64,000 nucleotides of DNA from a phage (GCA_036253055.1 GCA_036253055.1_4124.1), one strand, 5' to 3'. Shown: positions 37,225 to 60,581, counted from the stretch's first letter. Notes: generated by a model not told the origin, from the letters alone. Made by a program: numbers and translations.

Positions 37225-37360
37225 TTTTTATAAAATAGTTTTCAGTACTGAATACTTATATAATAGATACACTTCCGCACCCTATGGGTCAGTGAGTTAT
37301 CTCTCAATGAATATATAATAGCAAAGGGACTGACTGGAGTCAATCCCTTTTTTAATCTTT
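37225..37360 (-). repeat. Intergenic repeat copy B (conserved element + intrinsic terminator)
   Basis: Element CCGCACCCTATGGGTCAGTG; terminator GGGACTGACtggaGTCAATCCC + T6. Confidence 0.6.
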
Positions 37361-37361
37361 T

Positions 37362-37946
37362 TTATCGTGTTATAGTTATCGCGTTAACATCACGTTTTTT
37401 ATAGTACTGATTCCAGATATTGCGGGTTAAACCGTAATCAAGTACTTTAATCAAGCCGTTGCGATCCTGGCCGATATTCTGTTTTCTGATATCTCTTATC
37501 GTTAGTGTGGATAATGTATCATCAACGTGATTGAGAGCATCAGCGAAATGGTGATGGCGTTCTACCGTATTACGTTTAATATTGTACTTTAACTCATTGC
37601 ACGCGTTTACATGCTTTACACTGCCTTTGCTTGCAGTACTCAAACGATCCATAACAATAAACAGATTATCAGGATCGCATAAATGCATATGCACTTTAGC
37701 AAAGTACTGTTTAAGGTGCGGACGGTCATAATCTAAAAAATTCCATACCTTACATTCAGTTTCATTTTGTTCTACACCCGCATCACAATTCGCGACCTTA
37801 ATCACTAACCGATCATTTAAAGCGAATACAATACGGGAAGAACCCGCACCGACGATCTCCAGTCCAGCTAACCGACAAGCTGAAAGGATCTCTTTGTTGG
37901 TTTCCATTGCATGAAGTGAACGGATGAATTTAGTATAGTTACGCAT
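37362..37946 (-). CDS. Putative protein-kinase-like protein (194 aa)
   Basis: Gly-rich loop VGAGSSRIVF, beta3 Lys in LVIKVA, catalytic-loop-like DIRKQN, DFG-like DYG; SD AAGGAG; start at ATG 37946. Confidence 0.5.
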   Translation of the reverse strand: MRNYTKFIRSLHAMETNKEILSACRLAGLEIVGAGSSRIVFALNDRLVIKVANCDAGVEQNETECKVWNFLDYDRPHLKQYFAKVHMHLCDPDNLFIVMDRLSTASKGSVKHVNACNELKYNIKRNTVERHHHFADALNHVDDTLSTLTIRDIRKQNIGQDRNGLIKVLDYGLTRNIWNQYYKKRDVNAITITR

Positions 37947-37977
37947 TGTGTTGACTCCTTGAGTTAATGAAACTATA

Positions 37978-53040: not shown

Positions 53041-53193
53041 TCCACCCAGGGTAACTACGCCCAAAATCCGTCAGTACTATACCATAGATCTATCTTTTGA
53101 AAGGGAGTATTCAGTACTGTCATCATAGCCCTCACTATGTTACCCTAGGAGGATGAAGACTATCATGTAGTACTGAATACTGTTAGAGGGAAT

Positions 53194-53213
53194 CCACCAG
53201 CACAAGCTGGTGG
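53194..53213. repeat. Perfect palindrome CCACCAGCacaaGCTGGTGG
   Basis: 8-bp arms; same CCACCAGC motif recurs at 47.24 kb, 35.30 kb and 40.12 kb. Confidence 0.6.
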
Positions 53214-53700
53214 CATAATGCTTTAGATTAAAATCAGTACTGACACCATTCTGTTAATATCAGTACTGTTATTACGATTTTCATATGAGGTTCAAAAAGA
53301 TGTACCACCACAGGAGGAACTATCTTTTCTGTACTGTCTCACGACAGGAGGTAGAGTAAATGAATTGTTCGCAGCAACTCATCACCCTATGTAGAACATT
53401 ATACAGTACTGAATCATAATGTCAATAGCTTTCTTTCATTATTCAGTACTGAAATCGTATAATCTGTATCGCTACAAAACTCATTATATCCCACAAATCC
53501 TATATGTCCCAACGTAAATTTCAACTTTCGAAGATCCAACTTTTATTTCATAGGTACTCCAAAATTTTTAGGATCGAGATTTAGGATGGAGTACTAACCA
53601 ACTTTTTGCTGGAGCCTCAAGGGGTAATTGAATTTTACCCCGAAGGGTAAAAGGGTAATTGAAATTAAGGTGAAAGTAATAATTCAGTACTAATCATTGC

Positions 53701-57434: not shown

Positions 57435-57636
57435 AGAAATATATTAGTCCTATTAAACCTGAGTACTGAATATTTTTGTTATTGCATTCGATTGCTTCTA
57501 GAGTACTACGTATACAATTATTAAAGCAATCTCTGGCGTGTGGTGTATCTATACTTAAAGGTGATACACTCCTTAGAAACAATTGTTCTTCGTTGCTAAG
57601 GTATTTGGTGTAGAATTCTTTATGTTCAGTATTCAT
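57427..57636 (-). CDS. Family-C paralog
   Basis: MNTEHKEFYTKYL...YSGLIGLIYFYE. Confidence 0.55.
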   Translation of the reverse strand: MNTEHKEFYTKYLSNEEQLFLRSVSPLSIDTPHARDCFNNCIRSTLEAIECNNKNIQYSGLIGLIYFYE

Positions 57637-57637
57637 A

Positions 57638-57847
57638 TTAGTACTCGATTAATAGTGTTAAGATGAAATAGTACTGCATAGACTCGTTACCTTCAAGGAA
57701 ATTCCTTATGAGGTTATTTCTGACTGAGTTAAGCAGAAGTGCCGAACGTTTTGCATTTGCAAGTATAATTTGTTGATGCTCTATGCTATTCTGTTCACCT
57801 TTTGACAGAGCACATAGGTAGTACTGCATAATTTGTTCTTGGGTCAT
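57638..57847 (-). CDS. Family-C-like paralog
   Basis: ...MQYYFILTLLIEY. Confidence 0.5.
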   Translation of the reverse strand: MTQEQIMQYYLCALSKGEQNSIEHQQIILANAKRSALLLNSVRNNLIRNFLEGNESMQYYFILTLLIEY

Positions 57848-58190: not shown

Positions 58191-59393
58191 ATGTTACCTT
58201 TTGGAAGAATGATTAAGTACGCAAATATTGCACCAGGTCCAGAACCTGTAGAGTTCTCAGATGTTTTACAACAACATTATACAAACTGTATGTATCTACA
58301 TAACCCAACTAATACTTTATATGGTTATGGTAGTAATAACTTTTATCAATTTGGTCTTGGGAATTCAGCAGCAGTTTCGTCATTTACAGTACTTGCAAGG
58401 AACTGTGCAGCCTTTTGGCTTGGTGTTCAAGGTTCATTGATGATTGATTTGGATAATAAAATATACTACACTGGATCGGTTGGTGCATTTTCTGATTATG
58501 GAGATGCAACACCTGTTAATGGTTTTTTGACAACATGGACTGATGTTACTGTTGCATTTAATAAAATTGGTGTTATGGCTAATATGATCAAGAGTGTATA
58601 TATAGGTGAAAGTACTAGAATATTATTAACCGATGGTAGAGTAATTGCGTGTGGAAGAAATACTAATGGTGAATGTGGCTCTGGTAATAAAAATTCCATC
58701 CCTACACTCACAGTTATGACTAATATGGGTGAAGTTACACATATGGCATGTTCATTACAAGGAACGCACTATATCAAATCAAATAAAGATGCATGGTTTT
58801 GTGGTAAGGATAACTTTGGTGAAAGTGGATGTGGTGGTAGTTCTGTTGTATATTTGAACAAATTCGTGATTAGTAATGTAGAACATATTAGTACTACATA
58901 CGATGTTACTTGGTGGTTTACTACTGGTGGGTCTGTATATTATAGCGGGGCTAACAGTACTGGACAAGCTGGTAATGGTACGACTACATCGGTAAATCAG
59001 CTAACACCAATTAGGAACACATCGGTCACGGTTGATGTAAGTAAGTACAGTACTTTTATTTGTCCAAGTAATATGGGAAATGCATCAATTGGTGCACCTA
59101 TGGCACAATACGCACCATATGTTAGAAGTAGTGGTGCTAACTCATATGGTCAAGAAGGTAATGGAACTAATACATTAGTTAGAACTTGGAATATTTTTAA
59201 TCTTAGTGCAATAAGTGGTGGTTATGACAATGTTCTTATGGCATCTAAAGATTGGAGCAGAACCATAATAATTACTAAAGATTATAAATTATATGCATGT
59301 GGTGGCTGGAATGGAAATGGTGGTAGATTGCCAGATGGCACTTATAGTATTACTACACTAACATTAATGCCAACGCAGTTATGGCAACAATAG
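58191..59393 (+). CDS. RCC1-like beta-propeller repeat protein, paralog 1 (400 aa)
   Basis: Repeated G-x-N-x-x-G-Q/E-x-G-x-G blade signatures; conserved N-terminus MLPFGRMIKYANIAPG; SD AAAGGAGGG. Confidence 0.7.
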   Translation: MLPFGRMIKYANIAPGPEPVEFSDVLQQHYTNCMYLHNPTNTLYGYGSNNFYQFGLGNSAAVSSFTVLARNCAAFWLGVQGSLMIDLDNKIYYTGSVGAFSDYGDATPVNGFLTTWTDVTVAFNKIGVMANMIKSVYIGESTRILLTDGRVIACGRNTNGECGSGNKNSIPTLTVMTNMGEVTHMACSLQGTHYIKSNKDAWFCGKDNFGESGCGGSSVVYLNKFVISNVEHISTTYDVTWWFTTGGSVYYSGANSTGQAGNGTTTSVNQLTPIRNTSVTVDVSKYSTFICPSNMGNASIGAPMAQYAPYVRSSGANSYGQEGNGTNTLVRTWNIFNLSAISGGYDNVLMASKDWSRTIIITKDYKLYACGGWNGNGGRLPDGTYSITTLTLMPTQLWQQ

Positions 59394-59401
59394 GAGGGAA
59401 T

Positions 59402-60511
59402 ATGTTACCTTTTGGAAGAATGATTAGGTATGGAAATATTGTCCCTGGTCCTAAAAAAATAATTAAAGTTGGTGCTTCTACCCAAGGCCAATTCTTATTG
59501 ACTGATTCACATGATTTATATTACATAGGTAGAAATCAAGGTGGTGAATCTGGAAATGGTAATACCAACACGGTATCTTCATGGATATTAGTAAGTGCAG
59601 ATGTTTCTAATTTTTTCGTGGGTGATCGTACACTTGTTATTATTAAAAATGATAATACGATATGGACATCAGGTCAAACGTACTGGTTCTCATCTTCTAC
59701 AACTACTTCTTACAGTACTGTATTAGTTGAAAGAACTAATTGGTTTACCAATGCTATACCAGTAAGTGAAATTGCTAATATTGTATGTACAAATGGTTTA
59801 ATATTTGTACTTAGCACTAATTCAGTACTCTATGGTGCAGGAGATAATGGATATCGTGGTTCTTTGGGTATTGGTTCCTCATCAATTTACACATTAACTC
59901 AATGTGCTACGAACGTTCGTAAAGTAATGACCAATGCGAATGATAGTATGTATCTTACATTAGATAATAAGCTATATAGTTCTGGATGGAATAGTAGTGG
60001 GCAGCATGGTACGGGGAACCAAACACAAATTAACACTTGGGGATTGCGTAGTTCTGGTGTAATCGATGCAGCCATTGGTGGTAATGCATTAAATTACTAT
60101 AATGGTACATCATATTTCGTATGTGGTCAAACTCCAAACTTTCTTAGTTCAGGTACGACTACATTCCGTGCAGTTCCTGTAAGTACTTTGCCTAATAGTT
60201 CTCCATTGTTTATGACGAATTCACCTGCCTTAAATACTGCTACACAAATGGTAATTACTAGTACATATCAGAAGGGTGTTGGGGCGAACCGTGGTTTGGG
60301 ATTAAACAATTCTCAAACTGGTGCTATATATAGTGCTACCAATTTACAATTACCCGTTGAAGTTAGTGAGATTAGGGATGTTCTTTTTAGTGATGGTTTG
60401 ACATCGATATTAACCAAAAATGGAGATGTGTATAGTACTGGATCGTATTACGCCATTCCAGGTGCAATCGAGGATGTTGCAGTCTTTACTAAAATTGATT
60501 TACCAAAATAA
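59402..60511 (+). CDS. RCC1-like repeat protein, paralog 2
   Basis: Start at conserved MLPFGRMIRYGNIVPG (SD TAGGAGGGAA overlapping upstream stop); blade motifs. Confidence 0.7.
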   Translation: MLPFGRMIRYGNIVPGPKKIIKVGASTQGQFLLTDSHDLYYIGRNQGGESGNGNTNTVSSWILVSADVSNFFVGDRTLVIIKNDNTIWTSGQTYWFSSSTTTSYSTVLVERTNWFTNAIPVSEIANIVCTNGLIFVLSTNSVLYGAGDNGYRGSLGIGSSSIYTLTQCATNVRKVMTNANDSMYLTLDNKLYSSGWNSSGQHGTGNQTQINTWGLRSSGVIDAAIGGNALNYYNGTSYFVCGQTPNFLSSGTTTFRAVPVSTLPNSSPLFMTNSPALNTATQMVITSTYQKGVGANRGLGLNNSQTGAIYSATNLQLPVEVSEIRDVLFSDGLTSILTKNGDVYSTGSYYAIPGAIEDVAVFTKIDLPK

Positions 60512-60517
60512 CATAAT

Positions 60518-60546
60518 GCCAGTACACTGTACTGGCTTTCTTATTT
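60518..60546 (+). terminator. Intrinsic terminator (GCCAGTACactGTACTGGC + TTTCTTATTT)
   Basis: Perfect 8-bp stem and T-rich tail after stop of paralog 2. Confidence 0.7.
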
Positions 60547-60581
60547 GTATTAAATATAGTATAACAAATAAAGGAGGGAAT

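Follow-up and report, generated by a model that had tools for sequence, protein, structure and literature searches.

A predicted protein-kinase-like fold with an extremely truncated C-lobe, encoded in a run of small genes of a 121Q-like jumbo phage

The window, which is the whole stretch of DNA analyzed here, is 64 kb (64,000 nucleotides) long and shares 98% identity with Escherichia phage 121Q (Asteriusvirus; a Rak2-like jumbo phage). On its minus strand, a 585-nt open reading frame at 37362..37946 (stop codon included) encodes a protein of 194 residues with the N-terminus MRNYTKF. The orthologues are gene 308 of 121Q and gp063 of phage Sharanji (WNN14351.1). In 121Q the same coding sequence is annotated as hypothetical, and it lies within a long same-strand run of small genes, nearly all of which are also hypothetical. 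We refer to it as the mini-kinase gene.

By direct reading of the sequence, a Shine-Dalgarno element AAGGAG is located at 37955..37960 on the minus strand, 8 nt upstream of the ATG at 37946. In a consensus scan, a candidate sigma70-like promoter with TTGCCA and TAATAT 17 nt apart was placed at 37975..38003 on the minus strand, shortly before the start of the kinase gene, and a stronger candidate at 38277-38249. The same scan found 10 sigma70-like sites compared with 6.5 +/- 2.5 in shuffles; such sequence matches barely exceed the shuffled controls. Directly after the kinase stop codon, a 12-pair, terminator-like hairpin with a weak T tail is found at 37323..37350 (minus strand), where it overlaps the promoter-like site of the next gene.

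Immediately upstream of the kinase, an 80-aa gene at 37978..38220 (minus strand) has no PHROG or Pfam match and is left without a family assignment. Its homologues also adjoin the kinase on the upstream side in phage Munch, in a Munch-like contig and in Erwinia phage Hallingskeid (E 6e-6 to 1e-5), while no homologue is adjacent to the kinase in RaK2 or in the two metagenomic relatives L014 and L017. The 80-aa protein is a possible partner of the kinase. Pfam and PHROG scans of ten neighbouring genes gave no functional theme except for one ParE-like domain two genes upstream of the kinase, and no metabolic or biosynthetic genes were seen among these scanned neighbours. There are no tRNA genes anywhere in the 64-kb window. 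A family HMM search of all 366 window ORFs detected no kinase paralogues; an array of ORFs of about 190 aa at 24-24,539 is unrelated.

The similarity to kinases was evaluated with progressively larger alignments. As a single sequence, the product matches the Pfam families PK_Tyr_Ser-Thr (E 0.0015) and Pkinase (PF00069, E 0.0028), both under the curated cut-offs; the Pkinase score is 17.5 bits against a gathering threshold of 31.7. A phmmer search of the PDB with the single sequence gave MKK4 (E 0.0018), aligned at HRDxKxxN...DFG, and most of the other weak matches were also kinases. When a 12-sequence profile was used, the values became 1.6e-4 for MKK4 and 3e-4 for MKK7, with the MKK7 alignments spanning the region from the Gly loop to DFG. 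With a 65-sequence profile, MKK4 was matched at E 4.7e-7 and 216 PDB sequences were found at E<=0.01; among the 60 matches listed of these 216, 58 are kinases by name. The kinases matched by the sequence profiles include MKK4, MKK6, MKK7, STE20-like and PknB-like proteins. The only Pfam families matched by the 65 family members are Pkinase (best E 5.7e-6), ABC1 and PK_Tyr. Residues 1-190 match PHROG 4301, a phage family with no function assigned, at E 2.6e-42, and a PHROG scan at E<=1 returned otherwise just two insignificant matches. The NCBIfam scan gave no match. The defence kinases of PADLOC (PD-T4-6 and others) gave weak local matches only, at E 2e-3 to 4e-2, in the catalytic loop and the DFG region.

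AlphaFold2 with the shallow 12-sequence alignment reached a pLDDT of 50.6. This model is superseded by the one from the 65-sequence alignment, with a pLDDT of 95.7 and a pTM of 0.91. The Foldseek matches in the PDB are MEK1, OSR1, Legionella Lpg2603, APH(2''), PRPK/Bud32 (best TMq, 0.48), Rio2 and the SAICAR synthetase fold, and ArkI scores no better in the fold search than dozens of protein kinases. The sequence-only reading had proposed a compact protein-kinase-like protein and had named fold prediction as the check; the predicted fold is indeed protein-kinase-like by both the AlphaFold2 model and Foldseek, so that the proposal is borne out by the profiles, the predicted fold and the residue conservation described below.

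Conservation was counted over 212 complete modules aligned, which come from 184 collected proteins. The Gly-rich ATP-binding loop G33-A-G35-S-S-R38-I-V40 (37827..37850, minus strand) lies within IVGAGSSRIVF at residues 31-41. Where the canonical GxGxxG has its third Gly, this loop has an Arg that is near-invariant across the family (R38 in 211/212 modules, compared with G35 in 202/212 and G33 in 183/212). The beta3 Lys, K50, is found in the VIK motif within LVIKVA (37797..37799, minus strand) in 212/212 modules, and in the alignments from the Gly loop to DFG this segment is aligned with VIAVK of MKK7. The alphaC segment Q60-N61-E-T-E64 (37755..37769, minus strand) belongs to a helix at 55-73 in the model. 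Its Glu, which the sequence-only reading did not mention, is present and invariant (E64, 212/212), and we infer that it is the salt-bridge partner of K50. One turn ahead of E64, Q60 (208/212) and N61 (207/212) are conserved residues specific to this family.

The catalytic loop D152-I-R-K-Q-N157 (37476..37493, minus strand) is of the D-x-x-x-x-N type and is aligned to RDIKPSN of MKK4. D152 is present in 203/212 modules, with Glu in 6 more, and G159 is present in 208/212. The position of N157 is more variable (N in 80, H in 65, S in 35 and Q in 24 of the 212 modules): its conservation is limited to the close Rak2-type relatives, and the wider family has N, H, S or Q. In the MKK4 alignments, R154 takes the place of the canonical catalytic-loop Lys, but neither R154 nor K155 is conserved; the residue at D+2 is R, G, T, H, A or S across the family, and that at D+3 is R, K, E or A. 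The loop had been read as D-x-K-x-x-N, which is out of register, since the Lys of DIRKQN is at D+3 and is not conserved. The His and Arg of HRD show no conservation in the mini-kinase family either, and the consensus is without the catalytic His. The DFG equivalent D170-Y-G172 (37431..37439, minus strand), aligned to the DFG of kinases, is presumably the Mg-binding loop. D170 is found in 212/212 modules and G172 in 210/212, and the residue between the two is Y in 154 modules and F in 35 of the 212. After it, a C-terminal tail of 22 residues (37365..37430, minus strand) has one helix at 175-182 in the secondary structure of the confident model and a conserved aromatic pattern W/Y..Y-Y, with Y182 in 157/212.

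The family signature is GxGSSR...K...QNxxE...D....N/H.G...DYG, and the consensus reads GxGSSRxVF...FxVMER...D. Thus the Gly-rich segment, the segment with K50 and the DYG of the sequence-only reading are all present and conserved in homologues, and the check it named, a conserved Lys and Asp in homologues, is answered by K50 and D170 in 212/212 modules and D152 in 203/212. Because K50, E64 and D170 are kept in all 212 modules and D152 in 203 of them, the residue pattern indicates a catalytic centre under constraint, and a pseudokinase is unlikely.

In the model, the N-terminal extension of 28 residues forms helices at 4-12 and 17-26. The five-stranded N-lobe comprises beta1, the Gly loop and beta2 (30-42), beta3 with K50 (47-52), alphaC with E64 (55-73), and beta4 and beta5, which end at residue 100; the hinge is at about residues 99-102. 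The C-lobe is minimal and consists of helix D (109-120), helix E (130-145), the catalytic loop (150-157), beta7 and beta8 (158-168), D170-Y-G172 and the helix at 175-182. Since the chain ends 22 residues after DYG, the protein is without an activation segment and helices F-I, and the P+1 loop and the APE motif are likewise absent. The features of the protein-kinase-like (PKL) superfamily are nevertheless found together: a bilobal fold, with the five-stranded N-lobe plus alphaC and the helical C-lobe core of D, E, catalytic loop and beta7-beta8, and the Gly-rich loop, beta3 Lys, alphaC Glu, catalytic Asp and Mg-binding Asp. The 194-aa product is therefore shown, at the level of the predicted model, to have a protein-kinase-like fold with the full conserved set of ATP, Mg and catalytic-Asp residues and an extreme truncation of the C-lobe. 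With the catalytic centre kept in about 165-190 residues, it is among the smallest kinase-fold domains. As far as sequence and model can tell, the missing peptide-binding parts (activation segment, P+1 loop, helices F and G) and the missing Ser/Thr-type catalytic-loop Lys count against a protein-kinase role, as does the variation at the catalytic-loop Asn in the wider family.

At E<=1e-3 the exhaustive profile search gave 2,070 cluster representatives, of which 248 reach E<=1e-10; the majority are 160-270 aa long. These profile matches show that the mini-kinase gene belongs to a large phage family of mini-kinases, and in BFVD the same fold is found in many small phage proteins. Many relatives have tandem arrays of two to four complete modules per polypeptide, with the catalytic residues kept in every copy. 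Some members are embedded in much longer proteins. For example, P0134 is a 3,248-aa tape-measure protein with two kinase modules in a phage tail gene cluster, and P0115 (2,130 aa), a distant homologue, joins a kinase module to a 2H phosphoesterase, to the head domain of a CCA-adding/poly(A) polymerase, and also to GNAT and further kinase modules. Eight more long homologues were scanned with Pfam and showed no additional domains. In a T4-like contig of 189 kb, a kinase copy is located between gp23 and gp13. One protein from a Firmicute-like contig (P0184, E 8e-3) was set aside as a family member because its match is marginal and unreliable.

The tblastn search of phage genomes gave 60 records; among the records listed, all are jumbo phages of 310-386 kb except for one 52-kb Klebsiella phage record. 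Identity is 90-98% in the Asteriusviruses and 72% in the CMSTMSU record. It is 35-41% in EJP2, Munch/7t3, RaK2/K64-1/Muenster and the Erwinia and Xanthomonas phages, and about 27% in the Yersinia and Pectobacterium phages. With the 12-sequence alignment, no close relatives were found in the GTDB bacterial genomes, and only 121Q itself was found in IMG/VR.

The kinase gene is present twice in records that span both terminal repeats. In fEgEco12, the orthologue is at 16.2 kb, inside a direct terminal repeat of 20,993 bp that has been confirmed by restriction digests (PMC13070987), and the annotated terminal-repeat features also cover the orthologue in vB_Ec-M-J, fENko-Kae01 and Muenster. The earlier placement of the gene in a small-gene module thus stands: the kinase lies within a same-strand run of small genes, which in relatives is inside the direct terminal repeat. 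This location is consistent with an early module or one for host takeover. Phage CBB has two paralogues of the kinase side by side in a cluster of tRNA genes. For the mini-kinase gene, neither a transcriptome entry nor an entry in a virion proteome was found.

The kinase annotation is not new: the orthologue already figures as a protein kinase in one paper and in several records of GenBank and UniProt. Orthologues are annotated as "putative protein kinase" in Munch, SE_PL, Muenster and fENko-Kae01, as "protein kinase" in K64-1 and as "serine/threonine-protein kinase" in Turkey5, in Turkey3 (there as PknA) and in fEgEco12 (there as PRP4). The label "protein kinase domain-containing protein" is used for ph0011 and for UniProt L7TKF0 of PBECO4. 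The Sharanji paper lists the orthologue WNN14351.1 as "another protein kinase ... which function is unknown". The mini-kinase is not discussed in the comparative jumbo-phage analysis of 2021, and no experimental work on it was found.

Our main reading, with a probability of about 0.5, is that the product is a PKL-superfamily enzyme, extremely truncated and competent for catalysis, which is probably expressed very early and phosphorylates host, possibly phage, proteins for takeover or counter-defence. In the proposed mechanism, ATP would be held between the lobes, with K50 and E64 positioning its alpha and beta phosphates, D170 and N157 holding Mg2+, and D152 acting as the base for transfer of the gamma-phosphate. 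The gamma-phosphate contact of the canonical catalytic-loop Lys would probably be replaced by R38 with Q60 and N61. Because the activation loop is absent, the enzyme should be constitutively active with an open substrate site. Very early expression from host-type (sigma70-like) promoters is probable, because in relatives the gene is located in the direct terminal repeat of about 21 kb, among small same-strand genes with sigma70-like promoters. The phosphorylation of host, possibly phage, proteins would then aid takeover or counter defence. The position in the terminal repeat and the tape-measure and polyvalent fusions point to action at the very start of infection. By analogy only, such a host-directed role would parallel that of the unrelated T7 kinase and of the T7K-like second kinase of these phages. 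The embedding in P0134 and P0115 is the architecture of the injected "polyvalent" conflict proteins, for which a role as kinases of host proteins has been proposed (PMC5512222).

Several other readings have to be weighed against this one. That the motifs are a chance pattern in an unrelated small phage protein, or mark a ligase fold like that of SAICAR synthetase, is very hard to credit. The single sequence does fall under the Pfam thresholds, and the 12-sequence AlphaFold2 run was poor, but the E-value of the kinase profile improves as sequences are added (from 1.8e-3 through 1.6e-4 to 4.7e-7), and the motifs, in canonical order and spacing, rank highest in conservation among the columns of a family with over 2,000 clusters; SAICAR synthetase shares the ancestral ATP-binding fold, yet it gave no sequence-profile match. 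The protein may also perform no phosphotransfer in vivo; it would then be a pseudokinase, a scaffold that binds ATP, or an ATPase like Bud32 that works only with a partner such as the 80-aa upstream protein. The extreme truncation of the C-lobe removes helix F, the usual hydrophobic anchor, the best TM-score (0.48) is to the partner-dependent ATPase PRPK/Bud32, and the small upstream gene adjoins the kinase in three diverged lineages. On the other hand, the upstream gene is not beside the kinase in RaK2, L014 and L017, and the catalytic residues are all kept at the counts given above, even in each module of the tandem arrays, as is typical of active enzymes. We regard a protein without phosphotransfer in vivo as distinctly unlikely.

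The remaining alternatives accept phosphotransfer and differ in the substrate. The catalytic loop of APH, Rio and Bud32-type enzymes is D-x-x-x-x-N without the Ser/Thr-kinase Lys, as in the mini-kinase, and the protein might work like the aminoglycoside phosphotransferases on a small molecule, such as a nucleotide-derived immune signal, a metabolite, a sugar or lipid precursor, or an antibiotic-like compound. The loss of every canonical peptide-binding element, the conserved polar cluster of R38, Q60 and N61 beside the predicted gamma-phosphate site, and the APH-like structural matches would agree with this. However, all the sequence-profile matches are to protein kinases or Pfam Pkinase and none to APH or choline kinase, the protein also lacks the helical C-terminal subdomain in which APH-type enzymes form their substrate pocket, and there are no metabolic or biosynthetic genes nearby; a small-molecule substrate is possible but doubtful. 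A quite improbable variant is a kinase of RNA or tRNA, or another RNA-directed enzyme, with an RNA end or a hydroxyl of ribose as the acceptor; the small tRNA kinase ArkI of archaea, which shares the fold, would be the model. This variant draws on the similarity to ArkI, on the tRNA gene cluster around the two CBB paralogues, and on the fusion of P0115 to the phosphoesterase and polymerase head domains. Yet ArkI scores no better than dozens of protein kinases, the window has no tRNA genes, and the P0115 fusion more likely reflects the general polyvalent-protein pattern, because it is a single case and the protein also carries GNAT and extra kinase modules.

Recent work has shown that kinases of phages can be broad weapons against defence, T7K being an example (PMC13645617). 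If targets of the mini-kinase were identified, they could account for some of the host-takeover programme in jumbo phages considered for therapy, and they would give PHROG 4301 a function. The mini-kinase is also a natural test of the least fold needed for catalysis and substrate choice. The case is of moderate interest through features of the family: it is minimal in size, forms tandem arrays, occurs fused to injected proteins, and supplies a second kinase beside a T7K homologue. A bolder idea, which we hold only tentatively and think unlikely, is that the family forms a very large clade of ultra-minimal kinases without a Pfam family that serve as first-strike effectors of phages, in terminal repeats, in tandem modules and in tape-measure or polyvalent proteins that enter with the DNA. 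Without any canonical element for substrate binding, these would recognise their substrates by a new mode, through the N-terminal helices, a small partner or R38, Q60 and N61, and perhaps act on non-protein targets such as immune nucleotide signals or tRNA. If true, this clade would be a new counter-defence mechanism of phages alongside T7K.

When compared with the eukaryotic-like Ser/Thr kinases (PF00069; MKK4, MKK7, PknB), the mini-kinase has in common the Gly loop, the beta3 Lys, the alphaC Glu, the Asp...Asn loop and the DFG-type Mg loop, in equal order and spacing. In contrast to them, it is without the activation segment, APE, helices F-I, the HRD conservation and the catalytic-loop Lys, and it has an invariant Arg for the third Gly. 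Bud32/PRPK, Rio1/Rio2 and ArkI resemble it in structure: their kinase-like domain is likewise small and has no activation loop, and their D-x-x-x-x-N loop lacks the Ser/Thr-kinase Lys. The mini-kinase differs from them in that it gives no sequence-family match to them, is shorter (194 aa), and is a phage protein without a KEOPS or ribosome-biogenesis context.

Among phage proteins, T7 gp0.7 had been suggested as a parallel, but kinship is not seen: the mini-kinase does not match PHROG 2828, and hhalign gives a probability of 2.5% against the T7K-like protein of this phage group. That protein is gp144 in Sharanji, a 224-aa T7K homologue (phrog_15752 at 1e-97, PHROG 2828 at 7e-16) encoded about 46 kb from gp063, and the T7K-like gene falls outside the 64-kb window. 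It belongs to the jumbo-phage T7K clade described in PMC13645617. The Rak2/121Q-type jumbo phages thus carry two unrelated mini-kinases. The T7K group has a D-P-(V) motif (PMC13645617) where the mini-kinase has D-Y-G, and the mini-kinase lacks the shut-off domain of T7 gp0.7. Both are small kinases of phages, and neither has the canonical regulation by an activation loop. T7K has many substrates among host proteins, and it disarms defences (PMC13645617). For the mini-kinase, an action on RNA polymerase or RNase E, as the sequence-only reading cited for gp0.7, and a reprogramming of the host are conjectural.

Iyer et al. 2017 (PMC5512222) described kinases in polyvalent proteins of phages and conjugative elements that have lost the whole C-terminal subdomain, and proposed that they modify host proteins; this kinase clade has been reported mainly from (pro)phages of Verrucomicrobia-Chlamydia and Bacteroidetes. 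The mini-kinases resemble them in the C-terminal truncation, in the catalytic residues kept, and in occurring either alone or embedded in giant injected proteins, as in P0134 and P0115. In the Iyer clade, a Glu precedes strand 2, the last N-lobe strand has a Gln, and the catalytic His and Asp are separated by an insert; this signature is missing from the mini-kinase consensus, the clades being compared by verbal description only (PMC5512222). Because these signature residues are not seen in the family consensus, we provisionally place the mini-kinase family, on this comparison by description, as a parallel or sister clade to the polyvalent-protein kinases. The kinases of Iyer et al. 2017 are its closest conceptual precedent.

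Directly upstream of the kinase gene lies an 80-aa gene (window 37978-38220, minus strand), for which the PHROG and Pfam scans returned no family. Its adjacency to the kinase is kept in Munch (L010), in a Munch-like contig (L016) and in Erwinia phage Hallingskeid (L011), where the homologue is annotated as a 'virion structural protein'. The gene two positions upstream of the kinase, on the minus strand at window 38277-38528, encodes an 84-aa product that matches the Pfam ParE_like toxin domain (PF24732) with an E value of 3e-10, a match that scores above the curated cut-off. In 5 related loci, homologues of the ParE_like gene are again found upstream of the kinase, at a distance of 0-2.5 kb, and in the metagenomic relative L014 the homologue directly adjoins it.

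The motif AGTACTGAATACTT, with up to 2 mismatches allowed, occurs 20 times in the window compared with 1.3 expected occurrences. Its core is the perfect 12-bp palindrome TTCAGTACTGAA. Exact copies are located at 37244-37257 and 38050-38063, and clusters at 53105-53691 and 57462-57833; some of the copies are intergenic. The motif may represent a phage operator or promoter element.

Two gene arrays are present elsewhere in the window. At 24-24539, the minus strand carries an uninterrupted run of about 25 ORFs, each 150-224 aa long, which looks like a paralogous multigene array; when the kinase-family HMM was run against the 366 ORFs of the window, no relatives of the kinase were found among them. 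Four further ORFs, each 376-433 aa long, stand in tandem on the plus strand at 58191-62941. Their orthologues in the related jumbo phage Sharanji, gp106-gp117, constitute an array in which most genes encode ~380 aa and one carries the annotation RCC1-repeat protein.

Relatives of the kinase itself are found as repeated or fused modules. P0021, P0023, P0030, P0032 and other metagenomic proteins carry 2-4 complete kinase modules of ~190 aa in tandem within one predicted polypeptide, which may reflect either genuine fusion or gene calls that read through. Two mini-kinase modules are embedded in P0134, a phage tape-measure protein of 3,248 aa (L008:2318-12064). In P0115 (2,130 aa), a mini-kinase module shares the polypeptide with a 2H phosphoesterase domain and a CCA-adding/poly(A)-polymerase domain. 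In Pectobacterium phage CBB, the two mini-kinase paralogues CBB_444 and CBB_445 are neighbours (L012:2374-3483), and a tRNA gene cluster surrounds them.

Outside the window, Sharanji encodes a second kinase, gp144 (224 aa, L004:6186-6857), which is labelled 'hypothetical' in GenBank and is assigned to the T7 gp0.7 family by its matches to phrog_15752 (1e-97) and PHROG 2828 (7e-16). One phage group carries two unrelated mini-kinases, gp144 of the T7 gp0.7 family and the kinase of the window.
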